Counted from the first letter of the stretch, positions 19,407 through 44,449 are shown. The stretch is DNA of 64,000 bases from an uncultured Chloroflexia bacterium (GCA_963833225.1 CAWHXD010000019.1:608001-672000), one strand, 5' to 3'. Program-made: numbers and translations. The notes: generated by a model not told the origin, from the letters alone.

Positions 19407-20867
19407 CTACCGGGAATGCGGCAGGCGGCGCTCGTGTGACGTCCGGGGCGGAGGCTGGCCGATCTCGCTGAGGGCTCGTCGGTAGAGCATCGCCCCGTCG
19501 ACGCCGGCCTCCGGCGACTGCACCGTCCCGAGATCCGCCACGAGTCGAGACTCCAGGTCCGTGCCGGCCAGCCCATCGATGATCCGCACCGCCCGCGCCG
19601 CCGCACGCAGGACCTGCCGCGTCTCGATCCGGAGCGGGTCGCCCCAGAACCACCCACACGAGGCGAACATGCCCAGTCGCCAGCGCTGCGCGTCGAGCAC
19701 CCCCAGCAGCCGCCCTCGCTCCTCGGCTGACGCCCGCCCGCCAAGCACGTCGACCGCGAAGGCTTCCGGGGCCCGGGCACCGATCACCACGTCGACGTAG
19801 CGGTCGCGCGCGGACCAGATGCCGTCGCGGCCGGTGAGCCCGCGGGTGAACGTCTCGGTCACCGTGTCGATGCCGCCGGCGAGGCGGTCGAGGGCGGCCT
19901 TGAGCGGCGCCTTCCAGCGCCCGTCGACGGCGCACGGGCACTCGCCGGACCAGCGAAGCACACCGTGATGGCAGCTCCATGACGTGCGGTCGCGGATGTG
20001 GATCTCGGGATGCCGGCGGCCCTCTCGCTCCCGCGTCATGTCGGCCAGCGTGACCACGTCGTAGCCCCGGTTTGGCGCATCTTCGGAGTGGGCGACGAGG
20101 CGGTTGAGGAACAGGTCGCGGAACGACTGGTGGTGCCCGTACAGCTCACCGTCGCTGGCCAGCACGATCGTCGGCGCGCCCCCGTCGAGCAGTGACCCGG
20201 CCAGCCGCGGCAGCACTCGCTCGCGCGCGAAGCGGTCGGCATCCGCCGTCACGCCCGGGTCGAACGAGATCGAGGCCGACAGGTCGCCGTCGTAGAACAC
20301 CACCGCGACATGGCGACCGCCCCCCGTGTCGACGCGATAGGGGAGCCGGTTGTCGATGTGGGCCGTCTCGGCCTGCCAGGGGGCGAGGATGGTGGACTCC
20401 ACGCCGGCCTCGGCCATCAGCGCCAGCGTCGACAGGTCCACGGCGGTCTCCGGCAGCCACATGCCTCTCGCGGGCCGCCCGAACCGGAACTCGAAGTCCC
20501 GGAGGCCCCACAGGATCTCCGTCCGGCGGTCGTGGTGCGCCAGGAGCGGCAGGATCGAGTGATGGAAGGGCTGGGCGATCCCCGGACCGTTGACGGCGCC
20601 GCCGCCTCTGCGGTCCGCCTCGGCGAAGCCCGCGAGGACGTCGGGCTTGGCATCGGCGAGGTAACCGGTCAGCGTCGGTCCCAGGTTCCAGCTGGCGCGC
20701 TCGAGGGTGCCCAGCTCGGCATTCGGGCGATAGCACTCCTCGGTGATCCGCTCGTTCCAGTCCCGGAACGGCGCCGCGGACGGGTCCGGCGGCACGCGAC
20801 CCGTGAACGGGTCGGTCCGGAACGGCTGGTAGAAGTGCGCGTGGACGACCAGTCGGGGGCGGCTCAT
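19407..20867 (-). CDS. GH57 family glycoside hydrolase (DUF3536-type)
   Basis: VVHAHFYQP, DWNERITEECY, GMWLPETAV, DGELYGHH, SWSCHHGVLRW and MFASCGWFW motifs. Confidence 0.9.
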   Translation of the reverse strand: MSRPRLVVHAHFYQPFRTDPFTGRVPPDPSAAPFRDWNERITEECYRPNAELGTLERASWNLGPTLTGYLADAKPDVLAGFAEADRRGGGAVNGPGIAQPFHHSILPLLAHHDRRTEILWGLRDFEFRFGRPARGMWLPETAVDLSTLALMAEAGVESTILAPWQAETAHIDNRLPYRVDTGGGRHVAVVFYDGDLSASISFDPGVTADADRFARERVLPRLAGSLLDGGAPTIVLASDGELYGHHQSFRDLFLNRLVAHSEDAPNRGYDVVTLADMTREREGRRHPEIHIRDRTSWSCHHGVLRWSGECPCAVDGRWKAPLKAALDRLAGGIDTVTETFTRGLTGRDGIWSARDRYVDVVIGARAPEAFAVDVLGGRASAEERGRLLGVLDAQRWRLGMFASCGWFWGDPLRIETRQVLRAAARAVRIIDGLAGTDLESRLVADLGTVQSPEAGVDGAMLYRRALSEIGQPPPRTSHERRLPHSR

Positions 20868-20904
20868 GCCCGAGGTGCGAGCGCCGGGCCGCGCCCTTGA
20901 GGGA

Positions 20905-23052
20905 TCACGATCGAGCGCGTTCCTCCTCGGCCCGGTCCCGCGCCACGGCCACTCTCGAGGTGACGGCATACCGGCATGTGGCACCCGGCTCGATCCTGGC
21001 GGGCCAGGACAGGAGCAGGGTACTGCCCTGGTAGACGCGCTCGAAGCCAGATTCCGAGTTGCTGACGGTCTCGATGGGACTCCACCACGCGTCCGCGACG
21101 GGATCCGGCCGGGTCTCAACCGCGATCCCGATCCAGTCGTTGCCATACCCGATGGCATCCAGGTCGCGGGCTTGCCCGGATCCGTCGTGGGCGGAGCGGA
21201 TGCCGTGGACGTCGTACCACGCCGACGGGTTGCCGCCGCCGCCGAGCATGTGGAGGGAGAGCTCGAGGCCAAGCCGGGTCTCAACGGCGGTGTCGCCGCG
21301 GTGCCGCACCTCGAGCTCGACCACGAGCTCCGGGTCCAGGCGCCCGCCGCCCAGGCGGATCGTCTTGGAGATCGCCAGCGGCTGGCCTAGCGCGGTGCCG
21401 TTGCGCGAGAGCGAGACCTGGCCGGGCGCGAGATGGTCCACCAGCCAGTCGCCGTCGCGGAAGTCGCCCAGCTCGGCCGCTGAGGCCACGGCAACCGACT
21501 CCGGCGTGACATCGGGTGCCAGGAAGCGGACGAGACCGTTGCGCCGTTCGTGGTCGTCGTAGTGGAGATGGTCGGAGAGGCCTTCCTCCTTGACCATCAC
21601 GATGTCGTGGATCGACGCGGCACCCGTCCCGTCGACCGTCCCGTCGCCGGCTCGAGCCGCGTGCGCGCGCAATGTCTCGTGGTAGGCCTCCGGCCGACGG
21701 CGCAGCACCGACGCCAGCGCGTGCCGCGCGGCGCGCACGTCCCAGCTGCCGATCCCGGCACCCTCGGCGGGCTTGACGGTCACGACCTGGCCCGGCTCGG
21801 CGAGCCGCACCTCGTCCCGGCCGTCCATGTCCAGGTCCAGGCGCTCCGCCGAGCGGGCCATCCCCAGCATGGCGTCGGCGGCGTCCTCCGCGGCGATCAG
21901 GTGCTCGCACGTGGCCAGGCGCATGTGGCTGATGTAGATCCCGCCGAACAGGCCGTGCCAGTAGCAGTCGTTGGACTGGCCGCGATGGAGGTGGTCGACG
22001 GCAGCGGTCCGCTCAGGACCGGCCGGCATCGCCGCCACCTTGGCCGACGTGCGCAGCATCTGCTTGTGGAGGTCGTTGATCTCCCGGTACCGGACCTGGA
22101 AGTTGCGCCAGAACCCGCCGCGCAGCCAGCGCGCCGCCGGATCGTGGTTCGCCCGGGCGTCGTGGAGCAGCCGCGTGAACACCACCGCCTCGTCCGCGGG
22201 AAGCGCCCATCCGCCCATCTCGGAATAGGAGCTGGTGGGCAGGTAGGCCCGGCCGATCGGTGGCTCACGTTCGAGCCACTGCGACGGCGTGACGGTCGAC
22301 AGCCAGTCCTCGTTGGCCTCGAGGGCCGTGAAGAACCGCTCGACCCAGCGTCCCTCACCCCAGCAATGCGCGTGGGTGGTGGGCCAGGCGCCGAACTTCT
22401 CGCCGTCGTCGCCCATCGTCCCCACCCGCTTCCCGTCCTCGGTTGCGTGGACGCGGAGATAGTCGATCACGTCCTCCACGCCGCCGAAGGGGATCCGGTA
22501 GCGGAGGCCCTGCTCGGTCCCGAAGACGGTCAGCAGGTTGCCCTGGTCCTCCGTGGTGTAGGCACCCCAGAGGTTCTCCTCCGGGATCGCGGCGGCCCGG
22601 AAGTGCTGGTCGTCCAGGATCGTCCAGCGGTAGCCGGCGCTCGTCAGCGCGGTCGGCAGGTCGGGCTCCCAGACCCGCTCCGCGAGCCATGCGCCCTGCG
22701 GCCGGCGGCCCGTGATCGCCTCCACCGTCGCCGTCATCCGGTTCAGCTGGTCGATGCGGTCGCGTTCATGGAGCGAGGCCAGGATCGGTTCGTAGAGGCC
22801 GCCGCCCAGCAGCTCCACCTGGTCGCGCGCCACCAGGGTCGCCAGTCTGGCCAGGAACTCCGGCCGCTCCGCCCCCAGCCACTCCAGCAGCGGCCCGGTG
22901 TAGTGAAGCGACAGGCGGACCCCCGGATGGCGCTCCAGCGCCTCGAGCATCGGCAGGTAGGCGCGGGCGTAGACCTCCGCGAACACCCACCCGAAGTTGC
23001 CCACGGGCTGGTGATTGTGGATCGCCAGCGCCAGCGAGATGCGGGGAGCCAA
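20905..23052 (-). CDS. GH57 alpha-amylase/4-alpha-glucanotransferase
   Basis: IHNHQPVGNF, GAWLAERVWEP, GDDGEKFGAWP and QSNDCYWHGLFGG motifs. Confidence 0.92.
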   Translation of the reverse strand: MAPRISLALAIHNHQPVGNFGWVFAEVYARAYLPMLEALERHPGVRLSLHYTGPLLEWLGAERPEFLARLATLVARDQVELLGGGLYEPILASLHERDRIDQLNRMTATVEAITGRRPQGAWLAERVWEPDLPTALTSAGYRWTILDDQHFRAAAIPEENLWGAYTTEDQGNLLTVFGTEQGLRYRIPFGGVEDVIDYLRVHATEDGKRVGTMGDDGEKFGAWPTTHAHCWGEGRWVERFFTALEANEDWLSTVTPSQWLEREPPIGRAYLPTSSYSEMGGWALPADEAVVFTRLLHDARANHDPAARWLRGGFWRNFQVRYREINDLHKQMLRTSAKVAAMPAGPERTAAVDHLHRGQSNDCYWHGLFGGIYISHMRLATCEHLIAAEDAADAMLGMARSAERLDLDMDGRDEVRLAEPGQVVTVKPAEGAGIGSWDVRAARHALASVLRRRPEAYHETLRAHAARAGDGTVDGTGAASIHDIVMVKEEGLSDHLHYDDHERRNGLVRFLAPDVTPESVAVASAAELGDFRDGDWLVDHLAPGQVSLSRNGTALGQPLAISKTIRLGGGRLDPELVVELEVRHRGDTAVETRLGLELSLHMLGGGGNPSAWYDVHGIRSAHDGSGQARDLDAIGYGNDWIGIAVETRPDPVADAWWSPIETVSNSESGFERVYQGSTLLLSWPARIEPGATCRYAVTSRVAVARDRAEEERARS

Positions 23053-23108
23053 GAATGCGGTCCTCTGTGTGACGGGAGGGGCGTGCCGTGCCGTGCCGCT
23101 GGGCGCGG

Positions 23109-25295
23109 CTAGGGCTTGGCCGCAACCCGGTCCGGGGTGTCGCCGCCCGCTGCCGGCAGGTACAGCTGCTCCACGTACTCGTGGAGCATCCGGGTCGAGG
23201 AGAAGCGCCAGATCGCGCCCGCGATGGAGTTGCGCATCAGCTGCGCCCAGTGGGTCGGCAGCCCGTCGGCGTCGCGCTCGTAGTACGCGGGCACGAGCTC
23301 CTCCTCCAGGATCCGGTAGAGGTCCTGCGCATCGGCCCAGTCCTGTGCACCCTCATCCGGGTTGGTCTCGCGCCCGCCGATGGCCCAGCCGTTGTCACCG
23401 ACGAAACCCTCATCCCACCAGCCGTCGAGCACGCTCACGTTGAGCACGCCGTTGGCGGCGGCCTTCATCCCGGAGGTGCCGGATGCCTCGAGCGGGCGGC
23501 GCGGGTTGTTGAGCCAGACGTCCACGCCCTGGACCAGGAAGCGGGCGATCCGGATGTCGTAGTCCTCGAGGATGAACACGCGACCGCGCAGCTTGGGGCT
23601 GCGGGAGCGCTCGAAGATGTCCTGGATCACGCCCTGTCCCGGCCTGTCCGCCGGGTGGGCCTTGCCGGCGAACACGATCTGGACCGGCCGCTCCGCGTCC
23701 CAGATGAGCCGGGCCAGGCGATCGAGGTCGCTGAACAGCAGCGCGGCCCGCTTGTAGGTGGCGAACCGGCGCGCGAACCCGATGGTCAGGATCCCCGGGT
23801 CGAGGACCTCCTCGAGCTCCTCGAGGGTCGCCGGCGCCTCCCCGTGACGGGCGAACTGGTTGCGCAGCCGGCCACGCGCGAAGATCGCGAAGTCCAGCTT
23901 CTGGCGCTGGTGGGCCTCCCACAGCTCCGCCGTGGGGATCTCGCCCGTGCGCTCCCAGAAGCGGCGTGCCTCGGGCTCGTCGTCCATGGCGTCGAGGGTG
24001 GCGTCCGTGTAGTGGTCCAGCACGTCCCGCATCGGCTGGCCGACCCACGTCGGGGTGTGGATGCCGTTCGTGACGCCCAGGATCTCGCGGGGGGTCACGC
24101 CATACCAGGTGCCGTTGGCGGTGTGCGCGTGGAGCTGGGAGACGGCGTTCGCGCCGTTGGTCAGCCGCAGCGAGAACGCCGTGAGGTCGAACTGGCCACT
24201 GTCGCCGTCCACGCCGAGGCCCAGCTCCAGCAGCCGGTCCATGGGGATGCCGCCGGTGCCCGGCCGGCCATCACCGTCGAACAGCGGTCCGGCCACCCGG
24301 CGGACGAGCGCCGTGTTGAATCGCTCGTTGCCGGCCGCGACCGGCGTGTGGATGGTGAACACGCTGTTGCGCCGGACCGTCGCCCAGGCCTCCTCGAGCG
24401 TCGCGCCGTCGGCGACCTGCTCTCGCGCCCGCTCCGCGAGGAGCAGCGCGGAGTGGCCCTCGTTGAGGTGCCAGGCGGCGGGGGTCAGCTCCAGCGCCCG
24501 CAGCGCGCGCACGCCGCCGACGCCCAGGAGCAGCTCCTGGTGGAGCCGCATCTCGCGACCGCGCACGTACAGGATGTGGGTGATCGGCCGGTCCGAGTCA
24601 TCGTTGTCCGGCAGGTCCGTGTCCAGCAGGAGGACTGGCACCCGGCCGACCTGTGCCAGCCACACGGCCGCGAACAGCTCCCTGCCCGGAAGCTGAACGC
24701 TGATGGTGAGCGGACGTCCGAGCCTGTCCAGCACGCGCATGATCGGCAGCCGGTTGAGCTCGTAGTCCGGGTACGCGTGCTCCTGGTGGCCATCCGCGTC
24801 GATGGTCTGGCGGAAGAACCCACGGCGGTACATGAGGCCCACGCCCACGAGTGGCAGCGCCATGTCCGAGGCCGCCTTCATGTGATCGCCAGCCAGGACG
24901 CCCAGGCCACCCGAGTAGATGCCCAGCGACTCTTGGAAGCCGTACTCGGCGCAGAAGTAGGCGATCGGGCCGGAGAGAGCGTCCGCGTGGTTGCGTTGGA
25001 ACCAGTGATCCGCGCCGTTGGCCATGTACGCGTCGAACTCCCGGAGGATGTCCTCGTACTCGGCCATGAACCGGGAGTTGTCCAGCAGCTGCGACCAGTT
25101 CACCTCACCCGCAAGCACGGGGATCGGATTCCGGTAGCGGGCCCAGCCGCCGGGATCGATCCGCGAGAACAGGACCCGCGCTCTTGGGTGCCAGCTCCAC
25201 CACAGGTTGTAGGCGAGGCGGCGCAGGCCCTCGAGCCTCGGCGGCAGGGAGAACGCGGCACCGGGTGCGGACGGGATCTCGACGAGGGGTTCCAT
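23109..25295 (-). CDS. glgP: Alpha-glucan (glycogen) phosphorylase
   Basis: YSGGLGVLAGD, HLNEGH, FARRFATYKRA and EASGTSGMK (PLP-binding Lys). Confidence 0.96.
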   Translation of the reverse strand: MEPLVEIPSAPGAAFSLPPRLEGLRRLAYNLWWSWHPRARVLFSRIDPGGWARYRNPIPVLAGEVNWSQLLDNSRFMAEYEDILREFDAYMANGADHWFQRNHADALSGPIAYFCAEYGFQESLGIYSGGLGVLAGDHMKAASDMALPLVGVGLMYRRGFFRQTIDADGHQEHAYPDYELNRLPIMRVLDRLGRPLTISVQLPGRELFAAVWLAQVGRVPVLLLDTDLPDNDDSDRPITHILYVRGREMRLHQELLLGVGGVRALRALELTPAAWHLNEGHSALLLAERAREQVADGATLEEAWATVRRNSVFTIHTPVAAGNERFNTALVRRVAGPLFDGDGRPGTGGIPMDRLLELGLGVDGDSGQFDLTAFSLRLTNGANAVSQLHAHTANGTWYGVTPREILGVTNGIHTPTWVGQPMRDVLDHYTDATLDAMDDEPEARRFWERTGEIPTAELWEAHQRQKLDFAIFARGRLRNQFARHGEAPATLEELEEVLDPGILTIGFARRFATYKRAALLFSDLDRLARLIWDAERPVQIVFAGKAHPADRPGQGVIQDIFERSRSPKLRGRVFILEDYDIRIARFLVQGVDVWLNNPRRPLEASGTSGMKAAANGVLNVSVLDGWWDEGFVGDNGWAIGGRETNPDEGAQDWADAQDLYRILEEELVPAYYERDADGLPTHWAQLMRNSIAGAIWRFSSTRMLHEYVEQLYLPAAGGDTPDRVAAKP

Positions 25296-27834: not shown

Positions 27835-28680
27835 TCAGGGGGCGTCGAAGGTGTAGGCGTCCACATCCCGGACCGGGTCGTAGCCGATCTCCTGGTAGAT
27901 GTGGTTCGAGGTGGGGTTGGCGAGGTCCGTGAACAGGAAGCAGAAGCGGCGCCCGGCATCCAGCTCCGCCTGGCTCACGGCGGCCACGAGGGCGCTGGCG
28001 TAGCCCCTGCGGCGGGCCTCGGGGGGCGTGTAGACCGGCCCGATCCGGATCCCGTTCGGCGTCGGGCCCCCGACACCCGCGAGCGACGTGGCCTCGCCGT
28101 CGATCCACAGGTAGAGCGTCCGCTCCGACCCGGACATCCAGCGGTCGGCGGTCGACTCGACCTCGGCCGGGTCCGCCTCGCCGAACGCGTCCAGGATGAA
28201 GCCCTCGGTCCAGGCGACGACGAGGTCGCGATCCTCGGGCGTGGCGACACGCACGCCACCTGGCACCGGGCGCGGCGGCCGGACCGCCGTGAGCCGGTAG
28301 ATCCGCTCGGACACGGCGAGGCGTGCCGGCGGGCCACCGGTCGCGGTCCATGCGTCGGCAAAGGCCCGCGCGTGCTCGGACGGACCAAGGACGCCGGACA
28401 GGCCCCGCTGCCGCGAATCCGCGACGAGATGATCGATGGCGCGTGGGTCGTCGATCTCCGACAGGATGAGCCGGTGCGGCCGCGTCTGGAGTGCCGCGGC
28501 CACGACACGACCCCCGTCGGTCACCGCCGCGAGGTAGGGCGGACCGGCGTACATCCCCGGTGTCGTGCGCAGGCTGGAGCAGATGCCGAAGATCAGGTTG
28601 TGCTCGGCCTCGCGTTCGCCGAGGAAGTCGCCGGCCGCGTCCAGGAATTCCCCGACGTCGGCGAATCGCCGAAGCTCCAT
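27835..28680 (-). CDS. GNAT family N-acetyltransferase
   Basis: RIGPVYTPPEARRRGYASAL and FLFTDLANPTSNHIYQEIGY. Confidence 0.92.
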   Translation of the reverse strand: MELRRFADVGEFLDAAGDFLGEREAEHNLIFGICSSLRTTPGMYAGPPYLAAVTDGGRVVAAALQTRPHRLILSEIDDPRAIDHLVADSRQRGLSGVLGPSEHARAFADAWTATGGPPARLAVSERIYRLTAVRPPRPVPGGVRVATPEDRDLVVAWTEGFILDAFGEADPAEVESTADRWMSGSERTLYLWIDGEATSLAGVGGPTPNGIRIGPVYTPPEARRRGYASALVAAVSQAELDAGRRFCFLFTDLANPTSNHIYQEIGYDPVRDVDAYTFDAP

Positions 28681-28803
28681 GCCGCTCCTCCCCTGGGAAT
28701 CGAGCCCGGAGTATGGCATTGACGGCCGGGCGGCTCGGCGGGATGCGCCTGCCGACGCGCGGCACGGCCGGGTCCGGGACCTGCATGGTACGGTTTCGGC
28801 CAC

Positions 28804-28879
28804 GCGGGAGTAGCTCAGCTGGCAGAGCGGCAGCCTTCCAAGCTGCATGTCGCGGGTTCGATCCCCGTCTCCCGCTCCA
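28804..28879 (+). tRNA. tRNA-Gly (anticodon TCC)
   Basis: 76-nt cloverleaf: acceptor GCGGGAG/CTCCCGC, anticodon arm GCAGC-CTTCCAA-GCTGC, GGTTCGATCC T-arm, encoded CCA. Confidence 0.97.
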
Positions 28880-28914
28880 TTCCCTCCCTTGGACGCACGT
28901 TGCGGACGAACGCG

Positions 28915-28941
28915 GACCCGGCCGGAAGGCCCGGCCGGGTC
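28915..28941. terminator. Stem-loop downstream of the tRNA and the convergent lipoprotein gene
   Basis: GACCCGGCCGG-aaggc-CCGGCCGGGTC, 11-bp perfect stem. Confidence 0.55.
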
Positions 28942-28969
28942 GTGGTTGGATCGCCGAGGTTTCGTCGGA

Positions 28970-29536
28970 CTACGGGCCGGCGACCGACAGCTGCACGGCT
29001 GGATGCCCTGCCGGCGTCACGCACATGACCTGGTAGCCGCCGACGGCGTAGTCGACGAGGTCCTTGCCCAGCTTCACGCTCTCGATCTTGTAGAGGAGCG
29101 TGCTGGCTGCCTGGACCCAGCCAAGAGTCGGCTGGTACACCCAGTCGGGAGCGTCGGTTGTCACGTCGCCATCGTCGTTCGCGAGCACTTCGACGAGATC
29201 TTCGTAGGTCGTTCCCGGCTTGACGCCATAGATCCAGAGATACGAACCCGAGACCGCCTTCTCAGGCGCGAACTCCATCTGCAGCATGGTGCCGTCGAGG
29301 ATCACTGACGGCCCGAGGTAGGTGCATGTCTCGCCGTCGAAGGTGACCTTGACCTTGAGCACCGACGTCGTCGCGGTTGGCGCCGGAGCCTCCGGTGGTT
29401 GGGTGCTGGGCGACGGCGCCGGGGCCTCCGGTGGTTGGGCGTTGGGCCCGGCGGTCGCCGACGGGTTCGCGCCGGACGTGCAGGCGGCCAGCACCACCGA
29501 GAGAAGCGCTGTGAGGAGATACCTGGTGCGCATCAT
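28970..29536 (-). CDS. Hypothetical lipoprotein with Pro-rich duplicated linker
   Basis: MMRTRYLLTALLSVVLAA-C lipobox; QPPEAPAP x2; beta-rich C-terminal domain with two Cys. Confidence 0.8.
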   Translation of the reverse strand: MMRTRYLLTALLSVVLAACTSGANPSATAGPNAQPPEAPAPSPSTQPPEAPAPTATTSVLKVKVTFDGETCTYLGPSVILDGTMLQMEFAPEKAVSGSYLWIYGVKPGTTYEDLVEVLANDDGDVTTDAPDWVYQPTLGWVQAASTLLYKIESVKLGKDLVDYAVGGYQVMCVTPAGHPAVQLSVAGP

Positions 29537-29605
29537 GGGGCCTCTTCCCGACTCGCCATCCGGGCCCCTGGTGGCCGGATCGGCGTCGCCACGATGCGAT
29601 CTGCC

Positions 29606-29649
29606 GATGAGCCGCCGGTGAGCAGCGTTTGAGGGGGCGATGAGCGGCC
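29606..29649 (-). promoter_or_regulatory. Four 11-bp-phased direct repeats, probable SARP/wHTH binding site
   Basis: GATGAGCCGCC, GGTGAGCAGCG, TTTGAGGGGGC, GATGAGCGGCC; TGAG core at 29608, 29619, 29630 and 29641. Confidence 0.7.
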
Positions 29650-29670
29650 GGAACGGCCTGCTCGGCGGGT

Positions 29671-32600
29671 TCATGGCGGCGCTGCGGTGCGGACCTGTTC
29701 GATCACGTCGACCTCGCGAAGGATGGAAGCGATCGCAGAGCCCGCCGGCGCCTCCGCGACTCGAAGGGCCGACTCCGGAAAGGCGATCGTGCCGAGGCTC
29801 CGTGGCATCCGGTCTGAGGCGTCCGGACGGAACTCCCCTGCGCTGATCGCGGACGCCACGAGGCTCGCGGGGATCCGCTCGCCGGCTGGCCGGTCCACCA
29901 GCGTGCCCAGGGAGACGGTCGGGACTAGTCCGCTCCCCAAATCGTGAGCGACGAGTAGGGACGCGAACTCGGCGCCGAGGAGGTGACGCACAAGCGCCCG
30001 GACCTCAGGCCGATCCCGGAGGACCACCAGCATGTACACGCGACCACGGAGCTGCTGCGAGCCTTCCCCACCGATGGGGAACTTGATCGGCGTCAGGTCT
30101 TCCCGGACGGCACCTGCCCACTGGGCCCGTTGATCTCCGCTTGCATGGATGAGCCAGCAGGCAGGGAGCTCATCGGAGCCCATTTCGAGGGCGACCCATG
30201 CTGCAGGCGTCCGGACCGCCGCATCCGGGCCGCCCTGAATGGCGCCGTCGAGGTGGATCAGGGCGTGGTACTGCTCGTACGCTCCCACGACCAGCGGATG
30301 ATTGAAGCTGAACAGGCCCGACGCCCACCTGTCGTACCACTCCGTCGTCAGGCGATCGAGGACAAGATCCTCGATGAGGTCCGCGCCGTTGGCCCCGTCG
30401 TGCTCCCCCCCAACCAGGCCCAGGCACCACGGCGTACGCCCGTCGGCGATCATCCGCTCGACGAGCCGCTCCAGGTCGGGCCAGGTTGCCGGAGGTTCGT
30501 AGCCGGCCTTCGCGAACGCCTCGGCCGGGTACCACAGCAGGCTTGAGGCCGTGGCCGCGATCGGTGCGCCGACGAAGCTGGTCCCATCGCCAGTCGAGCC
30601 AGCGCCGCGCGATCCGACCCAGCTCAGGTCGGCCAACGGGCCCGCTGCGAGCGTCGCCACCTCGGCCGGCGACAGGATGTCGTCGAGGGCGATCAGCGAT
30701 CCGGCCCGGTCGAGATCGGTGATGTCACCGGGTCGAGCAAGGATGGCGACGTCTGCCTGCTCGACGGCCGGTCCTGGGTCAGTGGCGCCGACGTCCGACG
30801 TGATGGCGATGGTTGGCCCCTCTGCCGCGTAGTTGACGAGCGCGTTGCTCAGGTCGGCGGGCAGCTGCGAGAAGACCCGCACGTTCGCTCCCGGGCTGCC
30901 AGCGTCCGCCAGCTCATCCATTGCCACCGGGCCGTCGGCCGTCATGACCCTCAGGTCGCTGTCGCTTCAAGTCCCCGCCCGCGACCGGACAGGCCGGCTG
31001 GTGGAGGTAGACCCGGCATTCGGCGGTCGTCAGGACCCGCCCGGCACCCGTCGTCGCGACCTCGATGAGGTCCGCACCGCGCAGCAGGTACACCCCTCGA
31101 GGACCGTTCCGGGCGATGCGGATGGCGCTCGGTGCGGCCTCGATCGGATAGGGGATCCGGGTCTCTTGGATCGCCCAGTGGAGTGCGTCGAGCGCCTCCT
31201 CCGTGATCCAGCCTCGATCGGCCGTGGCCCGTGCCGCCTCGACGGCGAGGAGCAGTGACAGGGTGGGATCCACGTCCAGCCGCCCATTCGCGGCGACCGC
31301 CAGCTCGCGTGCCGTGGCGATCGCCCGATCCTCGCGGGCGCCCTCCGCCTGGCGCCAGACGACGGCGAGCAGCCCCGAAGCGCCGACGACCGCCACGAGC
31401 AGCACCGCCACGAGCGCCCGGAGCCACGTCGCGGCCCGTCGCTCCAGCCGGCGCTCCTGGTCTCGGCGATCTCGCTCGGCCAATTCGATGCGTCGACGCT
31501 CGGCCAGGCTCGCGTCGAGCAGCTCGCGCTCCGGAGCGTCGAGGCGGATGTCGGTTGCGGCGCTCCAGGCCTCGAACAGGTCGAGGCGGCTGCCGGACAG
31601 GAGGAAGCCCGGATCCCGGTGCGCGGCCTCCCATTCGGTGGCCGTGGCCTTCAGCCGCGTCTCCATCCAGAGGGCCTCCTCCGCCTCCTGGATCCACCCC
31701 GCGAGGCGCGGCCAGTGCGTGAGCAACGCCTCGTGGGCCAGCTCGACCGTTGCTCGGCCGGTGCGGGGGTCGCGGTCGAAGCCAAGCAGTCGCCATCGAC
31801 CAAACGCCTCGAGCAGGTCGTCGATGCGCTCTGGCGCCGGCTCGATCGACCGCAGGTCGTCCATGACGACCCGCCGGGCAGCGACGCTCCGCCCTTCGCC
31901 GACGGCGGCCAGGCGCAGGAACAGCTGGCGAGCGACATCGCGCGACGGCTGGTCGAGCGACGCGAAGACCGTCTCCGCGCGCCGACCGACAGCACCGGCG
32001 ATGCCTCCGATCGCGGCGTAGGACCCGCGGCTGAGCTGCTGTCCGTCGGCTCGCTCGAACAGCTCGGTGAGGGCGAACTGGAGTAGCGGGAGCGCCCCCG
32101 GCCGGTCGATGACGTCCGCCTCGAGGTCCGCGGCGAGCCCGGGCTCGAGCTCGACGCCGACCGCGGCGGCCGGTCGCACGATTGCCCGCTCGAGCTCGTC
32201 GCGGGTCAGCGGGGTCACGACCTCGATGCCGTCCCGGATGAGTGCCCCGAGCTCGGCGCTGAGCAGTGGCCGGTCGAACCAGTCGGCTCGCAGCGAGGTG
32301 ACGACGGTCGGGCGCGGCGGAGGTCCTGTGAGCGCGGCGGCGATGCCGCGCAGGAACCTGGCGGGCGCCGCTGGGTCGGTCGCCAGCGCGAACAGCTCCT
32401 CGAGCTGGTCGATGACCAGGAGCAGGGGGCGAGGATCGGCGGCGGCCGCCCGAGCGAGCGTGGCGCCCACGTCGGCGGGGTCGGCCCCCACCGCCAGGCC
32501 GGGTCCCTCCGCGCCGGAGACGACAGCGTCGAGCGAGCGCAGGAGCGCCTCCTCCGGACGGTTGCCCGGAAGCATGATCGCAACCCGCCATTCCGCGTGG

Positions 32601-33607
32601 CCGGGATCCGATCGCGCCCGCAGCAGCGGCAGGAGCCCTGCCCGAATGACGCTCGACTTGCCGCTTCCGCTGGGTCCAACGAGAAGCAGCAGGTGGTTCG
32701 TCCGAGACACCGCGTCGAGGCGCTCGAGAAGCCTCGCCGCGAACATCTCGCGCCCGAAGAAGTCAGTGGCGTCCGCTTCCCCGAAGGGCCGCAGGCCCTT
32801 GTACGGGTTCCGCGGTCCGGAGGCGGGCCGCGCGAGATCGAGCTTCACGTCCTGGCGCAGGATGGCGAGCTCGAGCGCCTGGAGCTCAGGCGAGGGATCG
32901 ATGCCGAGCTCGTCGGCGAGGAGGTGGCGACCCTCCTGGTAGACGCGCAGGGCATCGGCCTGGCGGCCGACACCGTAGAGGGCGCGCATCAGCTGGGCAC
33001 GCAGATGTTCGCGCAACGGCTCTTCGGAGACGAGCGCCTCGAGCTCGCCGGTGATGTCGCCGCCATGACCGAGCGCGAGGTCTGCTTCGAAGCGATCCTC
33101 GAGCGCTCGCAGCCGAAGCTCTCGAAGGCGAGCGATCTCCGGCTGCAGGAACGCGAGGTCGGCGAGGTCCGCGTACTGGTCGCCGCGCCACAGCGCCAGG
33201 GCGTCGCGAAGTCTCGCGGCGGCGACTGCCGGTTCACCGGCGAGACGCTCGTGGCCTTCGCTCGCCAGCCGCTCGAAGCGGGTCGCGTCGATCGCGTCGG
33301 GCTCGATGCGCAGGGAGTAGCCGCCCGCCTCGGTCGCGATCAGTCCCCGACCGCTGGCTGGACCGGGAACGTCGCCCGACACGGGCTCCAGCGCTGCCCG
33401 AAGCCGCGACACGTGGAACGCCACGCTTCCGGCGCCGCTCTCCGGCCGCGCATCGCCCCAGAGCGCGTCGAGGATGCGCTCGGTCGGGACCGTCCGTCCG
33501 GCGTGGACGAGGAGCAGCGCGAGCAGGGCACGCTGGCGCTGGGACGCGATCGCGATGGCCTGGCCATCTTCGACAAGCTCGAGGGGGCCAAGGACCCGGA
33601 TCTCCAA
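29671..33607 (-). CDS. SARP wHTH-BTAD-STAND NTPase-TM-extracellular solute-binding fusion regulator (~1310 aa if the frameshift near 30966 is corrected)
   Basis: MEIRVLGPLEL, ALALWRG and PLREHLRAQLMRALY (SARP/BTAD); RNPYKGLRPF, GPSGSGKS and LVIDQLEE (nSTAND1-type); TM helix; SLLWYP...AGYEPPATW...DGRTPWCLG (family-1 SBP) in the second frame with no signal peptide of its own. Confidence 0.8.
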
Positions 33608-33769
33608 CCGGCGCCCTCGCTGCGAGTTCCGGCGACGTCGAGCGTCGATGCTAGGCCGGAGGCAGCGAGGTGGCTATGGCCGTCCGGCCTGTCAGGTGGT
33701 CCCGGGCGGCGGTCCAGCCCGCGTGGTCCTGCTCTCGGTCCTGCCCGCTCCCGAGCAGGCCGAGGGCCG

Positions 33770-34463
33770 TCAGGACGACAGCTTGGGGCCGCGGTTGAGG
33801 ATTCCCGGCAGCAGCAACCCGAGCACCGCCGCAACCACCAGGATCACCAGCCCGGCGAGCGTCGTTGGATCCAGGATCCCGAACTGCTCGGCCGCCAACG
33901 CGAGACCGAGGCCACCGAGGGCGCCGAAGATGAGCCCCACGATCCGTGACCCGATCCCGCCGCCGTTGAGCATCGTGAGCAGCAGGACCAGCGCGCCGAC
34001 GATCGCGGCCGCGACGCCGCCGCCCCCGAAGACGGTCAGGAGCGGGTTCACGTCATCGATGATGATCCGGACCTCGCCGCTGCAACCCCCGCCCTCGCCA
34101 CTCGAGGATCCGGCGACGGTGAACCGGGCGCCCAGCGCCGTGAAGGCCGCCACGGAGACCCCCTGGACCTCGCCGGTGGTGCCGCCATCCCCGCTGCCCG
34201 AAGCGATCGGCAGCTGGAGGCCAAGCGCGTAGGCACCGACCGACGCCGCCGTCTGCTTGGACGGGGCGGTCCCGGAGCCGCCGGCCACGTCCGTCGACTT
34301 GCAGGTGCCACTCTGCCGCGGTCGTGAGATCGATGGCGCCGGTTGACGTCGAGGTACCGGTGACCTTGCAGCCTCCGGTGACGGTGGCCGCGGCCACCGC
34401 CGGGATCGCCAGCGCGAGGGCTGCCGCAAGGATGGGCGCGATCGTGTTGTGGATTCTGGGCAT
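33770..34463 (-). CDS. Hypothetical exported/membrane protein (signal peptide, two-Cys domain, three C-terminal TM helices); frameshift near 34301
   Basis: MPRIHNTIAPILAAALALAIPAVAAA leader joins the 33770 frame at HL/KSTDVAGG; GGAGGAGG RBS; TTGACG-16-TAGAGT promoter upstream. Confidence 0.65.
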
Positions 34464-34599
34464 GTGCACGGCCTCCTCCGTCCCGTTCCCCCGGGATCCA
34501 GCGAGCGGATCCTCACCCCCTCACTCTAGGCGCGGGGCCCCGTGCGTCAACCCCTCGGCGGTCGAGTGACGTAGCATCAGCCTCGCCCGAGGAGGTCCC

Positions 34600-35821
34600 G
34601 TGTCGTCGCCCCGCAAGGTCGCGCTGTTCACCAACGAATACCCGCCAAACGTCTACGGTGGCGCAGGCGTGCACGTCGAATACCTCAGCCGCGAGCTGTC
34701 CCGCCTGGTTCCGGTGGAGGTCCGTTGCTTCGGCGACCAGGATGCCGACGAGCCCAACCTCCGGGTGAAGGGCTACGGCCCGTGGGCGGAGGCCACCCAC
34801 GACACGGACCCGCGCTTTCGGGGCGCGCTCGACGCCTTCCAGCGCAACCTGGCGATGGCCAAGGACACCCTCGACGCGGACGTCGTCCACTGCCATACCT
34901 GGTACGCGGACATGGCCGGATTCCTGGCCAAGAAGCTGTGGGGCGTGCCGCTGGTCCTGACGACGCACTCGCTCGAGCCATTGCGTCCGTGGAAGGTGGA
35001 GCAGCTCGGCAACGCCTACGAGCTCTCGGGCTGGATGGAGCGGACGACGATCCTCGATGCCGACGCGCTGATCGCGGTATCGCGGGAGACGACGGGCGGA
35101 CATCCTGCGCTTCTTCCCCGTTGACCCCGCCCGGATCCACGTCATCCACAACGGGATCGACCTCGACGAGTACCGCCCGGATCCCCGGACCGCCTTCCTC
35201 GAGCAGTACGGAATCGACCCCGACCGTCCGTTCGTGCTGTTCGTCGGCCGGATCACCCGCCAGAAGGGGATCATCCACCTCGTCAACGCGATCCCCGAGA
35301 TCGATCCGTCGCTCCAGGTGGTGCTCTGTGCCGGCGCCCCCGATACCGCCGAGATCGGGGCCGAGATGGCGCAGCGGGTGGCCGAGGTGAGCGCAGGCCG
35401 GGCCGACGTGACCTGGGTCCGGGAGATGCTGCCGCGTGAGGCTGCGATCCAGCTCTACTCGCACGCGGCGGTGTTCTGCTGTCCGTCCGTCTACGAGCCG
35501 TTCGGGATCATCAACCTCGAGGCGATGGCCTGTGAGACGGCGGTGGTGGCGTCCGCGGTGGGGGGCATCCCGGAGGTCGTGGTACCCGAGGAGACAGGGC
35601 TGCTGGTCGACCCGCGGATCCGCGAAGGGACGTTCGACCCGGTCGATCCGGCGGCGTTCTCAGCCGGCCTGGCCGAGGCCATCAACCGCGTCGGGCTGGA
35701 CGAGGCGCTCCGGGAGCGGATGGGCCGGGCGGGCCGGCAGCGCGCGAGGACCACTTCAGTTGGGCTGCGATCGCGCAGCCAGACGCTCGACCTGTACGGG
35801 CGGCTGCTGGACGCCCGGTAA
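34600..35821 (+). CDS. glgA: GT4 glycogen synthase / alpha-maltose-1-phosphate synthase (actinobacterial GlgA/GlgM type); frameshifts near 35092 and 35750
   Basis: TNEYPPNVYGGAGVHV, HCHTWY, HSLEPLRPWKVEQLG, FVGRITRQKG and SVYEPFGIINLEAMAC motifs. Confidence 0.9.
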
Positions 35822-39460: not shown

Positions 39461-41512
39461 TCAGCCGGCCGTGGGTGGTCGGGTGCTCGAGGTGCGGCGC
39501 CGTTCGCCGCGCCGTCGCTCCACGCCTCCGGGTGGCGGCGCGACGCTGCTTGTCCGCCGGTCCGCCCTTCGGCGCTCGCCGCCGGCGGGCAGCTGGGGCA
39601 CGGATGTGGCCGTCGCTGCGGCCGGCTTGGCGGCCACGGTCGCCGCAGCCGGCTTGGCGGCCACGGCCGCGGCGCGCGGTGCGGACCCGCCGACCTCGGC
39701 GATCACGCCCAGCGAGATCCGGAAGCCGGCTCGTCGCTGCTGGGGCGGCATCATCGTTCCCTGGCCGACCGGCGCGTCGCCCGGGAACCATTTGACCCAC
39801 TCCTCGTTGAAGGCATCGAACTCGGCCGGGTCACGCAGCGACCAGTTCGCCCACGCGATCCGCTCGAGCGACGAGCCCTTCGCCTCCAGGAGGCGATTGA
39901 GGTTCTCCAGGCACTGGGTGGCCTGCGCGGCGATGGACTCCCCGGCGATGTGCCCGGTCTCGGGGTTCACCGGGCCGACGGAGGACACGTACACCATGCC
40001 GCCGGCCTCCACGGCGTGCCCCAGCCCGATCTTGAGCCGGGGTGCAAGCTCGCCCGACTGCTCGATGCCGATGGACCGTCCCTTGCCAAGCCGGATCTTC
40101 ACCGGGTGTTCGGCATCCTCCGCCGGGATCCCGAAGTCCCCCTCCGGCAGCTCGATCCCGGACGCCTGGAACTTGGGCATGAACGTGGGTCGCTCGCCGG
40201 TCGGCTGGAGCGTGCCCACGATCTTGCCGTGCTCATCGACACCGGTCTGCTTGAACTCGAAGATGTCCTGGGTGAGGATCTGGTCATCCTCGATCCCGTA
40301 GACCTCGGTGATGTTGATGATCTTGCGCGAGCCGTCGCCGAGACGGGCGGTGTGCACGATGAGGTCCACCGCGGACGCGATCTGCTCCCGGATCGAGCGC
40401 AGCGGCATCTCGTAGCCGGCCATCAGGATCATGGTCTCGAGGCGGCGGAGCATGTCCGGCGAGCTGTTGGCGTGGCCCGTCGAGAGGGACCCTTCCTGGC
40501 CCACGGTCATCGCCTGGATCATGTCCAGGGCCTCGCCGCCACGGCACTCGCCGACGATGATCCGGTCCGGGCGCATGTGGAGCGCGTTGCGGAGGAGGTC
40601 GCGGGTCGTGATCTCGCCCAGGCCCTCGAGGTTGGGCGGGCGGGCCTCGAGGGTCACGACGTGCTCTTGGCGGAGCTGGAGCTCAGCCGCGTCCTCGATG
40701 GTGATGATCCGTTCCTCCTCGGGGACGAAGGCCGAGATCACGTTGAGGGTCGTCGTCTTGCCGGAGCCCGTGCCGCCCGAGACGAAGATGTTGAGACGGG
40801 CCTCGACACAGGCGCGCAGGAAGTCGAACATCTCGGCGCTCGCGGTGCCAAACCCGACCAGGTCCTCGACCGTGTACGGGCGCTGCGAGAACTTCCGGAT
40901 CGTGATCACGGGCCCGATGAGGGACAGGGGCTCGATGATGCAGTTGACGCGCGATCCGTCCGGGAGGCGGGCGTCGACGCGCGGGCTGGTCTGGTCGATG
41001 CGGCGCCCAAGCGGCGTGATGATGCGGTCGATGATCCGGAGGACGTGGTCGTCGTTGAGGAACGACATCGGGACGCGCGAGATCTTGCCGGCGCGCTCGA
41101 TGTAGATGTGGTCCGGTCCATTGACCATGATCTCGGTGATCGTCGGGTCGGCGATCAGCGGCTCGAGCGGGCCCAGGCCGCTGACCTCGGCGATGACCTC
41201 CTCGGCGAGGCGATTGCGCTCGCCGCGCGTGACCGCGAGCCCGTTGGCCACGATGAACCGCTCCAGGATCGCATCCACGGCCGTCCGGAGGTCGGAGGTC
41301 TTGGAGGCCTCGAACAGCGCATGCGACGACCCGACGACCTCGTCCTGGAGGCGACGACGGACCTCGCGAAGCCACTCCTCGCGGGCGGCGTAGTTCGCGG
41401 GCGCGCCAATCGGCACGGTGGCCACCGCGCTCGTGGCGGGCTTGGCCTCCGCGCTCCCAGGTGCATCCGTTGCGGCCTGCTGGGCGCGCTCGATTCGCGA
41501 GGTGAGGGACAT
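39461..41512 (-). CDS. cpaF: TadA/CpaF-family secretion ATPase fused to a C-terminal Rid/YjgF-like domain
   Basis: TEIMVNGP, VDARLPDGSRVN, GGTGSGKTT, TIEDAAEL, MRPDRIIVGECRG and STGHANS, followed in frame by AVEAGGMVYVS...AQATQCLENL...FDAFNEEW. Confidence 0.88.
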   Translation of the reverse strand: MSLTSRIERAQQAATDAPGSAEAKPATSAVATVPIGAPANYAAREEWLREVRRRLQDEVVGSSHALFEASKTSDLRTAVDAILERFIVANGLAVTRGERNRLAEEVIAEVSGLGPLEPLIADPTITEIMVNGPDHIYIERAGKISRVPMSFLNDDHVLRIIDRIITPLGRRIDQTSPRVDARLPDGSRVNCIIEPLSLIGPVITIRKFSQRPYTVEDLVGFGTASAEMFDFLRACVEARLNIFVSGGTGSGKTTTLNVISAFVPEEERIITIEDAAELQLRQEHVVTLEARPPNLEGLGEITTRDLLRNALHMRPDRIIVGECRGGEALDMIQAMTVGQEGSLSTGHANSSPDMLRRLETMILMAGYEMPLRSIREQIASAVDLIVHTARLGDGSRKIINITEVYGIEDDQILTQDIFEFKQTGVDEHGKIVGTLQPTGERPTFMPKFQASGIELPEGDFGIPAEDAEHPVKIRLGKGRSIGIEQSGELAPRLKIGLGHAVEAGGMVYVSSVGPVNPETGHIAGESIAAQATQCLENLNRLLEAKGSSLERIAWANWSLRDPAEFDAFNEEWVKWFPGDAPVGQGTMMPPQQRRAGFRISLGVIAEVGGSAPRAAAVAAKPAAATVAAKPAAATATSVPQLPAGGERRRADRRTSSVAPPPGGVERRRGERRRTSSTRPPTAG

Positions 41513-41646
41513 GGACGACTCCCCGGGCGCGGCCATCCCCGTGCGGCCGCGTTGCGCAAGATCCTACGCGCGGACCGCGGTATCGGGAAGGCCCTCCTCG
41601 CGGTGAGGCGCGGCTGGGCGGTGTCCGCGGTCACCGGGGGCCATCG

Positions 41647-42418: not shown

Positions 42419-43276
42419 TCACGGCGCCTCGAGCCCGTGACGCTCCAGCAGCTCCGCGTCCGCGAGGAGCCGGTCTGTCGCCCCGTCGGCCACGATCTGG
42501 CCGTCGTCCACGACCACGGTCCGCGGGAACACCTCGGCGACGAGGCGCATGTCGTGCGTCGAGACGAGCGTCGTCTGGTCGAGGCCACGGAGCAGCGTGA
42601 TGAGCTCCCGGCGGCCACGTGGATCGAGCCCGGCCGATGGCTCGTCGAACACGAGGATCGAGGGGCTCATCGACAGCACCGTGGCGAGGGCCACCCGCTT
42701 GCGCTGTCCAAGCGACATGCGATGGGGGACCCGGTGGGCGAAGGCCGCCATCCCCACCGCGGCCAGCGCCCGCTCCACCCGGCGATGGACCTCATCGGCC
42801 GCCATCCCCATGTGGAGCGGTCCGAACGCCACGTCGTCGAACACGGTCGGGCTGAACAGCTGGTCATCGGGGTCCTGGAACACGAGGCCCACCTCGGCCC
42901 GCACGCGGCGAATGGTCTCCCGGGTCACCGGCAGCCCGGCGACGCGGACCGATCCGTGAGCGGGCCGGAGCGTGCCGTTGAGCTGGAGCATCAGCGTGCT
43001 CTTGCCGGCGCCGTTGGGACCGACCAGGGCCACCTTCTCGCCGCTCCCGATGTGGAGGTCGACCCCCCGCAGGGCCTCGAACCCGTCCGGGTAGCGGAAG
43101 TGGACATGTTCGAGGTCCACCCGGCCACGCTCGTCGGCGGGCGCGGTGCCGTCCGGCTGCGGCTCGCCCGGCGCATGGAGGTGGGGATGCGCGTGCGGCG
43201 GCGCGCCCTCGTGGACGTGAACGTGGACGTGGTCGTGCTCCAGCTCGGGCACGCCACCTTGGTCGAGGGTCGTCAC
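42419..43276 (-). CDS. cbiO: ECF Ni/Co transporter ATPase with His-rich N-terminus
   Basis: GPNGAGKST, VFQDPDDQLFSPTV, MSLGQRKR and FDEPSAGLDP. Confidence 0.9.
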   Translation of the reverse strand: MTTLDQGGVPELEHDHVHVHVHEGAPPHAHPHLHAPGEPQPDGTAPADERGRVDLEHVHFRYPDGFEALRGVDLHIGSGEKVALVGPNGAGKSTLMLQLNGTLRPAHGSVRVAGLPVTRETIRRVRAEVGLVFQDPDDQLFSPTVFDDVAFGPLHMGMAADEVHRRVERALAAVGMAAFAHRVPHRMSLGQRKRVALATVLSMSPSILVFDEPSAGLDPRGRRELITLLRGLDQTTLVSTHDMRLVAEVFPRTVVVDDGQIVADGATDRLLADAELLERHGLEAP

Positions 43277-44067: not shown

Positions 44068-44086
44068 GGTGCGGCGCTCCTGCCCG

Positions 44087-44449
44087 TCAGGCGCGCCGGC
44101 GGGCGACCACGCGCCCGAGGACGAACACCACGCCCACCACGATCGCGACGCCGAGCAGGCCTGACAGGATGGTGGACACGACCGGGTCGTCGATGCCCGG
44201 GATCGCGTAGCCGCTGAGCAGGCCCGAGAAGAAGTTCTGCGCCCGCTCGATGAAGCCGGTGTCCTCGGCGACGCGCTCGAGGCCGTCCGGATCGGACGAG
44301 GCGAGCGGGGCGAGAACGACGACCACGACGGCGACGATCGCCAGCCCGACGACCCACCACCACCGACCGAGACGGCCCCGAGGGGCGTGCCTGTCCTGCC
44401 CGCCAGCCGGGGCCGCCGGGGCCTCCTCCGGCTCAGACACGGCGGTCAT
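44087..44449 (-). CDS. PDGLE-domain protein (NikN-like accessory subunit)
   Basis: LAPLASSDPDGLERVA; two TM helices. Confidence 0.9.
   Translation of the reverse strand: MTAVSEPEEAPAAPAGGQDRHAPRGRLGRWWWVVGLAIVAVVVVVLAPLASSDPDGLERVAEDTGFIERAQNFFSGLLSGYAIPGIDDPVVSTILSGLLGVAIVVGVVFVLGRVVARRRA

Follow-up and report, generated by a model that had tools for sequence, protein, structure and literature searches.

A split SARP-nSTAND1 gene in an uncultured Chloroflexia bacterium probably encodes a single-pass membrane receptor with an outer solute-binding domain

The window analysed here is a stretch of 64,000 nucleotides from an uncultured Chloroflexia bacterium (GCA_963833225.1, CAWHXD010000019.1:608001-672000), and our subject is a candidate sensor gene within it, together with the lipoprotein gene that follows. 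Both are read from the minus strand in three successive open reading frames (ORFs): ORF1 (30914..33607, 897 residues), ORF2 (29671..30945, 424 residues) and ORF3 (28970..29674, listed with 234 residues). ORF1 contains the peptides GPSGSGKS, LVIDQLEE, ARELAVAA, LSLLLAVEA and RVLTTAECRVYLHQPACP, and ORF2 contains SLLWYP, AGYEPPATW and DGRTPWCLG. An initial annotation, made from the sequence of the window, had quoted these elements, all of which are in place on the minus strand, and had read the two frames as one membrane-spanning regulator in which a degenerate sugar-binding domain replaced a WD40 sensor. The features of the locus are collected in Table 1.

At the N-terminus of ORF1, Trans_reg_C is followed by BTAD, both above their Pfam cut-offs, which is the domain pair of a SARP activator. 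The nSTAND1 match behind them is nearly full-length (profile positions 1-378 of 379), with GPSGSGKS as Walker A motif and LVIDQLEE as Walker B motif. The SARP part also matches the NCBIfam model of AfsR over residues 3-301 only; identity with that equivalog was rejected, the score of 185.9 bits being far under the cut-off of 1430. Charges around the transmembrane (TM) helix are uneven, with seven lysine or arginine residues in the 20 positions before it and three in the 20 positions after it. ORF2 carries a partial match to SBP_bac_1, to which the cluster-D-type carbohydrate solute-binding proteins belong (residues 47-230, profile positions 39-199 of 307; 37.5 bits against a Pfam cut-off of 26), and its solute-binding protein (SBP) fold starts near residue 18, at ~30894. 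As the initial annotation had noted, ORF2 has no signal peptide: on the Kyte-Doolittle scale its maximum hydropathy is 1.3, its N-terminus is acidic, and no hydrophobic N-terminal segment was found. Permease genes common to the loci compared were not found either. In fold and ancestry the ORF2 domain corresponds to a transport SBP; lacking a signal peptide and shared permease genes, it is nevertheless not one. The TM helix encoded upstream would serve for its export in place of a signal peptide. ORF3 had no Pfam match.

Table 1. Features of the sensor locus, with positions counted from the first letter of the window.
Feature	Position	Strand	Basis
SARP winged-helix DNA-binding domain, Trans_reg_C (ORF1 residues 22-76)	33380..33544	-	Pfam, 37.8 bits against a cut-off of 26.2
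BTAD (ORF1 residues 106-250)	32858..33292	-	Pfam, 156.6 bits against a cut-off of 22.1, E 7e-46
nSTAND1 NTPase, PF20703 (ORF1 residues 268-666)	31610..32806	-	Pfam, 351.3 bits against 27.1, E 1e-104
Single TM helix (ORF1 residues ~729-751), N-terminus predicted inside	31355..31423	-	Kyte-Doolittle 19-mer mean of 2.84
Juxtamembrane alpha/beta linker (ORF1 residues 752-880, 129 residues), C-x8-C motif at its end	30968..31354	-	Alignment, model
Frameshift site, one base more than in relatives (AA in TTGAAGC)	30964..30970	-	Contig, DNA and protein comparison
Second frame: last two linker strands and complete two-lobe carbohydrate-type SBP, stop at 29671-29673	29671..30966	-	Pfam, ortholog model
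Lipoprotein gene, likely start at the MMRTRY methionines (29536), not at ATG 29674	28970..29536	-	Conservation among loci
Conserved 5' region (~95 nt) with GGCCG-N2-CGGCC inverted repeat, promoter-like hexamers and AGGG ribosome-binding site	33608..33705	-	Alignment

ORF1 and ORF2 have 32 nt in common. Upstream, the ORF2 frame stays open as far as a TGA at 30969-30967, and past the frameshift site ORF1 is read out of frame through 17 codons before it ends in the TGA at 30914-30916. When base 30967 is skipped, 880 residues of the first frame and 431 of the second join into a chain of 1311 residues with no other stop. First, the three close orthologs are 1306-1320 residues long with the junction in frame, and in the alignment of their DNA the window is exactly one base longer, in a variable stretch between the C-x8-C and LRVMT motifs. 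Second, two public contigs of ~84-90% identity, X2 and X3 (X3 including a 29-kb contig), leave out one base at 30967, in line with the initial annotation, which had joined the frames by removing one base near 30966. Third, the closest database relatives cross the junction without a break: P0010 (93% identity in the linker), P0101, P0102 and P0046. A search of 41 related genomes with ORF2 returned matches inside unbroken open frames of 1331, 1310, 1342, 1350 and 1387 residues. These fused frames belong to G010, G019 (with two), G009 and G018, four of the 24 other genomes of the same genus; most other matching genomes hold only free-standing binding proteins, 26-31% identical to ORF2, and no match was found in the 16 genomes searched in the sister family.

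The position of the break is also informative. In the ortholog model described below, it falls just before two beta strands (model residues 138-146) that precede the SBP (from ~155); since these strands belong to the linker, the break is not a domain boundary. The ATG of ORF2 corresponds to the conserved internal methionine of the LRVMT motif in the fused proteins. Strong ORF2 matches of nearly its own length are contig-end fragments or broken pieces, such as P0004, which starts after the first SBP strand, and no natural split form of the sensor gene was found among the relatives compared. We conclude that ORF1 and ORF2 are one gene, interrupted by one extra base at about 30967 in this assembly.

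The outer part of the protein was modelled on the 562 residues that follow the TM helix of the 62%-identical G010 ortholog, using an alignment of 58 rows. The mean predicted local distance difference test score (pLDDT) of the model is 90.4 and its predicted template-modelling score is 0.90, with pLDDT values of 76-96 in the linker part. Model residues ~155-562 superpose on the sugar-binding protein AcbH (3oo6_A) with a Z score of 27.8 and a root-mean-square deviation of 3.1 over 372 of 390 residues; binders of xylo-oligosaccharides, chito-oligosaccharides, glucose and raffinose follow with Z scores of 23-26. Foldseek likewise returned sugar-binding proteins at E ~2e-14, with template-modelling scores on the target of 0.75-0.78, and the sequence profile matches BxlE, RafE, AcbH and ppGBP. 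The C-terminal part of the intact ortholog is accordingly modelled as a full periplasmic-binding fold, as the initial annotation had expected, and by this model the SBP domain is divergent in sequence and complete in fold, not degenerate.

The ligand class can be given as carbohydrate-type, and no narrower. The nearest structures bind galactose, glucose, or xylo-, chito- or raffinose-type sugars. The best NCBIfam model for ORF2, NgcE, scores 21.5 bits against a cut-off of 399.65, and NCBIfam gave neither an equivalog nor an AglE-type assignment; the word 'alpha-glucoside' appears only as an automatic name from one source of database matches. The AglE-type resemblance seen in the initial annotation is backed by such names and by no NCBIfam match. 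Among the 58 sequences, C116, C313 and C401 are invariant and C125 is conserved in at least 90%, C116 and C125 being the pair of the C-x8-C motif; several tryptophan and acidic residues are invariant as well. The four conserved cysteines fit an oxidising, outside location and may form disulfides. The positive-inside rule, these cysteine pairs, the nature of the SBP family and a partner with a lipoprotein signal lead us to infer that the DNA-binding and NTPase parts are cytoplasmic and that the linker and SBP lie outside.

The linker, residues 1-155 of the outer part, forms a small alpha/beta domain in the ortholog model and has counterparts outside the SBP family. P0111 (1545 residues) is a kinase-nSTAND1-TM-WD40 protein with the same NTPase family, TM helix and two linker segments as the sensor; it is the one complete relative on which the arrangement was examined. 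Linker residues 3-95 align to its residues 822-911 and linker residues 90-125 to its residues 1506-1541, the end of the protein, and Pfam places a WD40 propeller between the two segments, at 915-1513. In this relative, then, the segments do bracket a propeller, as the initial annotation had stated. P0111 has ~600 residues of propeller between the segments and ends at the C-x8-C motif, whereas in the sensor family the propeller is missing and the SBP is appended after the second segment, behind that motif. The idea that a degenerate SBP had taken the place of the WD40 sensor is therefore right in that the propeller is gone and an SBP is present, but the SBP is complete in fold and was added at the end, not inserted between the segments. 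Perhaps the short hairpin now found between the linker segments is what is left of the closing blade of the propeller. A further relative, P0112, has the first linker segment in common, and both P0111 and P0112 have the same TM helix and juxtamembrane segments as the sensor family. Applied to these two proteins, the topology argument would put the WD40 propellers outside the cytoplasm, an unusual place for domains of this type.

The gene downstream of the sensor gene falls inside the span of the initial annotation, which did not mention it. It encodes a lipoprotein with a LAAC lipobox (C19 invariant), a Pro/Ala/Thr-rich tether and a domain of 130 residues, in which two cysteines and no histidine are invariant among nine sequences. 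Every close ortholog locus has an ORF3 homolog, 48-51% identical, immediately downstream of the sensor gene, and the more distant Chloroflexota loci have weaker or tandem copies there (30-41%). Altogether, a homolog directly follows the sensor gene in 11 of 16 loci; of the other five, L043 lacks DNA beyond the sensor gene, L042 is broken, and the remaining three (L037, L039 and L041) are loci of Acidimicrobiia or of the kinase type. Two of the more distant Chloroflexota loci, L033 (7792-8853) and L034 (7795-8850), encode a lipoprotein with two tandem cupredoxin-like domains.

The lipoprotein domain is modelled as a beta-sandwich, mostly at pLDDT 81-97 with one block of ten residues at 63. Its likeness to cupredoxins is at the level of the fold only: EfeO (7wgu_B) is matched with a Z score of 7.4 and azurin with 7.1, and laccase and auracyanin at E ~1e-4. 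An atlas search returned clusters named 'hypothetical protein' together with SoxE/copper-binding leads at 0.86. We rejected an identity as a copper protein because no histidine is invariant in the nine sequences, and retain only the cupredoxin-like fold. Modelled together with its own lipoprotein domain, the ortholog outer part gives an interaction prediction score from aligned errors (ipSAE) of 0.66 (runs of 0.62, 0.68 and 0.66), against 0.00 for the best of three controls; 58 of 80 solved complexes and 2 of 110 mismatched pairs reach that mark. Contacts agree among the runs to at least 85%, and the pLDDT of the partner is 83 or higher. In the predicted complex, the lipoprotein contributes an edge strand (139-154), which contacts the N-lobe of the SBP at its second strand and first helix (172-189) as well as the linker hairpin (79-88); the SBP cleft lies outside the interface. 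On this model, the lipoprotein is a predicted co-receptor of the sensor.

The sensor belongs to a larger family. Among the longer database proteins that match ORF2, 54 of 55 carry nSTAND1 (PF20703), the remaining one being an unrelated fusion. The 54 comprise a SARP type (35 proteins, ~1290-1330 residues), a type with SARP and a protein kinase (11 proteins, 1535-1747 residues), a class III cyclase type (three proteins, 1373-1421 residues), one protein with a kinase only, and four without an N-terminal output that are probably partial. Separate Pfam scans confirm the SARP, kinase, SARP-plus-kinase and cyclase forms. The continuous Trans_reg_C-BTAD-nSTAND1-SBP architecture that the initial annotation had postulated is thus real in relatives, both in the four genomes of the genus and in the proteins that join nSTAND1 to an SBP. 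With a profile of linker and SBP, 2969 cluster representatives are matched at E <= 1e-3, of which 471 reach E <= 1e-30. The linker is included in 75 of the 150 best profile rows, and 40 of those are proteins of at least 1000 residues that carry the match as a C-terminal module. Of the 95 proteins compared that have at least 1000 residues, 86 have a TM helix 480-700 residues before the C-terminus, and the nine without a helix at that position include cyclase forms, WD40 forms and non-members.

The named records come from metagenome-assembled genomes labelled Chloroflexia, Candidatus Limnocylindrales, Acidimicrobiia and Acidimicrobiaceae. Databases list the proteins under names assigned automatically, for example 'BTAD domain-containing putative transcriptional regulator' or 'extracellular solute-binding protein'. 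Full-text searches, which did not extend to subscription journals or supplements, turned up no publication in which a STAND or SARP protein is joined to a solute-binding domain. A review of SBPs in signalling contains none of the terms 'STAND', 'Trans_reg_C' and 'transcriptional regulator', and the classes it sets out do not include a STAND transducer behind an SBP (PMC8050422). The word 'solute' does not occur in a 2026 survey of prokaryotic STANDs.

Upstream of the sensor gene, ~95 nt align across the window and six orthologous loci, and the sequence beyond them does not align. The start codon is TTG in the window and ATG in the six aligned relatives. We regard the 95-nt region as a candidate control region on the strength of this alignment; a scan for consensus promoters and terminators over 28800-33900 returned no site. 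SARP activators act through direct repeats at the -35 region of promoters. Directly upstream lies an ORF of 248 residues (33770-34516, minus strand) that has no Pfam match and a hydrophobic C-terminal half rich in Gly, Ala and Leu; it has no counterpart adjoining the sensor gene in the 11 loci compared.

The wider neighbourhood had led the initial annotation to suggest a maltose- or trehalose-type ligand. The alpha-glucan genes it named are real where they were checked (19407-25295 and 34600-35821): GH57 genes occupy 19407-23052, a phosphorylase gene 23109-25295, and a GT4 glycogen-synthase-like (glgA-like) gene 34600-35821. When the window ORFs between 14 and 50 kb were compared with 11 loci by tblastn, no shared neighbours were found beyond the sensor-lipoprotein pair and paralog-level matches. 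Against G006, a genome in one contig, the window is collinear on both sides: one block has the alpha-glucan genes and an LLM-type oxidoreductase gene, and the other runs from the glgA-like gene onward. Between these blocks the window has 6.7 kb (27885-34609) with genes for an acetyltransferase, the lipoprotein, the sensor and a membrane protein, whereas G006 has ~23 kb of unrelated DNA (G006:C1 ~2248231-2270998). G006 has no ORF2 match, though its alpha-glucan genes are kept in the same order. Because the neighbourhood of the sensor is not conserved and G006 has alpha-glucan genes without a sensor, the alpha-glucan context is incidental, and the proposed ligand has no support.

Two further genes of the window were considered as possible frameshift products. 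The second GH57 gene (19407-21284, minus strand) matches the family profile no earlier than position 106, and 380 nt of its listed ORF are shared with the upstream GH57 gene; that it is broken was not shown, the match being partial and no second piece being present. An ORF of 691 residues (39461-41536, minus strand) joins a T2SSE-type secretion ATPase (residues 119-398) to a RidA/L-PSP domain (residues 507-589). Its origin from a frameshift found no support, as G006 has the same open frame (698 residues, 78% identity), and from this comparison of sequences the T2SSE-RidA/L-PSP fusion looks real.

Taken together, positions 29671-33607 of the minus strand are likely to be one gene for a single-pass membrane receptor of ~1311 residues, built from a SARP winged helix with BTAD, nSTAND1, a TM helix, a juxtamembrane domain and a complete SBP. 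To illustrate how such a receptor could work, we divide the proposed pathway into three steps that follow the signal from the outside to the DNA. First: a ligand would close the SBP, which would be held in complex with the cupredoxin-like lipoprotein, and this closure would alter the association of the outer parts. Second: the chain crosses the membrane only once, and one helix hardly carries a conformational signal, so the signal would pass as altered self-association, and the association outside would let ATP-bound nSTAND1 modules oligomerise. Third: this oligomerisation would free or align the SARP heads, with DNA binding, recruitment of RNA polymerase and promoter activation taking place at the membrane. 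The relay of an outside ligand to transcription, as the initial annotation had proposed it, is plausible.

Several observations weigh against the receptor. No public run covers 30967 for this strain: the best run, X1, contains 0.13 of the sampled words and provides only two identical 151-nt contigs, at 30324-30640. The frameshift of the sensor gene and that of the glgA-like gene, described next, lie no more than 4.2 kb apart, and none was seen in other genes compared with G006, which could mean local decay. The start codon of the sensor gene in the window departs from that of its six relatives, and the gene is dispensable in most of the genus, two points that speak for a real mutation rather than an assembly error. 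Pfam covers only part of the SBP, at 37.5 bits, and ligand binding could have been lost. The loci of Acidimicrobiia and of the kinase type, L037, L039 and L041, have no lipoprotein gene, and the score of the complex is a model confidence that comes from shallow alignments, with seven rows for the partner. Finally, nSTAND1 was defined in conflict systems, and its Pfam name says only 'Novel STAND NTPase 1'.

The most serious of the alternatives, which we nevertheless consider unlikely, is that the frameshift is real. The receptor gene would then be a recent pseudogene, or would yield only a truncated SARP-nSTAND1-TM-linker protein, with the SBP frame unmade or useless in the cytoplasm. The extra base is, after all, present in the assembled sequence, and the glgA-like gene (plus strand), at a distance of ~4 kb and in a segment unlike that of G006, is also broken, near 35091-35096. 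Its pieces carry Glyco_transf_4 (34600-35124) and Glycos_transf_1 (35234-35821); the gene is unbroken in four of four relatives, as one open frame of 376-503 residues, and the G006 protein matches the window with residues 30-190 in one frame and 192-429 in the next. The TTG start and the patchy occurrence of the receptor in the genus, which implies that its loss is tolerated, point the same way. Against a real frameshift stands the state of the gene itself, with a single lesion in 1311 codons, no other stop, and an undiminished G+C content at third codon positions of 0.85 and 0.82 in the two frames. Sister records of the family, moreover, show many scattered frameshifts of the kind typical of noisy assemblies: P0010, P0101 and P0102, whose contigs are long, drop out of frame and return to it at several further sites, and in G010 a different gene, the T2SSE+RidA homolog, is split by a frame change into G010:C10:42447-43061 and 43057-44451. 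The genome of the window is itself 86% complete and in 20 contigs. When the ORFs of 54 relatives were compared with the whole genome, only glgA was found split besides the sensor gene, a sample too small for an error rate. The second split gene, the scattered frameshifts in sister records, the single lesion and the high third-position values lead us to regard an assembly error as the fairly probable cause, rather than a real recent inactivation.

The receptor could also be intact and its SBP no longer a binder of small ligands. In that case, which we judge improbable, the domain would be a scaffold for protein interaction, and the real input would be the lipoprotein partner or the state of the envelope that the partner reports. 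The complex model places the partner on the edge strand of the N-lobe and the linker hairpin, similarity to transport SBPs is low (26-31%), and NCBIfam has no equivalog, all of which would suit a scaffold. Both lobes and the hinge are retained, however, over the 372 of 390 aligned residues, the invariant tryptophan and acidic residues persist across the 58 sequences, the predicted partner interface leaves the cleft out, and the Acidimicrobiia members do without the partner gene.

Less probable again is a sensor of conflict or immunity, in which the outer domain would detect a glycan of the cell envelope or of an invader and the outputs would trigger a defence programme. The nSTAND1 name and its use in STAND proteins that are effector-fused or diversified by diversity-generating retroelements, as described in 10.1101/2023.09.22.558884, invite this reading, as do the patchy distribution of the gene and its place in a variable segment between conserved blocks. 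The outputs, though, are regulatory (SARP, cyclase, kinase) and not killing effectors, and the PADLOC matches to mad3 and mad8 are at the level of the P-loop only (E ~5e-4, 17 bits). No defence genes were noted in the neighbourhoods looked at, where no systematic screen was made. That ORF1 and ORF2 form a natural two-gene layout, or are joined by programmed +1 frameshifting, is scarcely credible: a GAGGG does precede the ORF2 ATG, but that ATG is the internal LRVMT methionine, ORF2 has no signal peptide, the break falls before two strands ahead of the SBP fold in the ortholog model, no relative compared shows the shift, and the strong matches of similar length, such as P0004, are contig-end fragments or broken pieces.

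STAND and NLR proteins are usually regarded as intracellular sensors. In the receptor proposed here, the sensor lies outside and the signal passes through a single helix, a geometry that suits a switch based on STAND oligomerisation. The same nSTAND1-TM-linker-SBP unit stands behind cyclase and kinase outputs too, and this argues for a general device of outside-in signalling. We tentatively suggest that single-pass transmembrane STAND (NLR-like) receptors of this kind form a class of their own, widespread in Chloroflexota and Actinomycetota and so far undescribed. In this possible class, an extracytoplasmic SBP or, in sister proteins, a WD40 propeller would control the oligomerisation of a cytoplasmic nSTAND1, often with a cupredoxin-like lipoprotein co-receptor, and the outputs would be interchangeable between SARP, cyclic-nucleotide synthesis and Ser/Thr phosphorylation. 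If true, histidine kinases, chemoreceptors and ToxR-like regulators would be joined by a new class of transmembrane receptor in bacteria, one whose outputs are modular and for which a co-receptor is predicted. The locus also carries a warning for annotation, as frameshifts in assemblies leave such genes in two pieces, labelled 'SARP regulator' and 'ABC transporter substrate-binding protein'.

The architecture of the sensor combines known kinds of protein, namely SARP-STAND activators, SBP-type receptors and co-component regulators, in a combination undescribed in the literature searched. MalT and GutR are cytoplasmic STAND transcription activators that sense sugars, and their sensors are cytoplasmic repeat domains. 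They share with the sensor a STAND NTPase, a DNA-binding output and a sugar-type input, and differ in that the candidate sensor domain here is a Venus-flytrap SBP across the membrane. GutR and AfsR have been cited as non-immune STAND regulators (PMC13581612). AfsR of Streptomyces coelicolor resembles the sensor in its N-terminal SARP (winged helix and BTAD) followed by a gating NTPase of the STAND class. According to PMC10936776, its NOD and TPR domains inhibit the SARP and ATP relieves the inhibition; since the STAND part of AfsR gates its SARP, there is a precedent for gating by nSTAND1 in the sensor. The sensor nevertheless has nSTAND1 instead of NOD and no TPR, and carries a TM helix and an outside SBP in its place.

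At the level of topology, the sensor resembles ToxR/ToxS, VtrA/VtrC and CadC, which likewise have a cytoplasmic winged-helix head, one TM helix and an outer sensor. In the 'co-component' systems ToxR/ToxS and VtrA/VtrC, as presented in PMC9214523, the extracytoplasmic partner encoded by the next gene forms a heterodimer with the membrane-tethered winged-helix regulator. The sensor, with its conserved downstream lipoprotein gene and predicted complex, has both elements that define such a system, a tethered winged-helix regulator and an adjacent gene for an extracytoplasmic partner, by prediction. It differs from ToxR-type regulators in the 400-residue STAND NTPase between head and membrane and in an outer domain that is an SBP. 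The partners appear to differ as well: VtrC/ToxS are lipocalin-like and the partner of the sensor is cupredoxin-like, with no lipocalin-like chain among the structural matches listed and the best folds, at Z <=7.4, indicating a fold class only. Finally, the SBP fold is known as an extracytoplasmic input from BvgS-type kinases (PMC4810494) and from chemoreceptors and kinases stimulated by SBPs (PMC8050422). These receptors have the SBP input in common with the sensor, which differs in coupling it to a STAND transducer.

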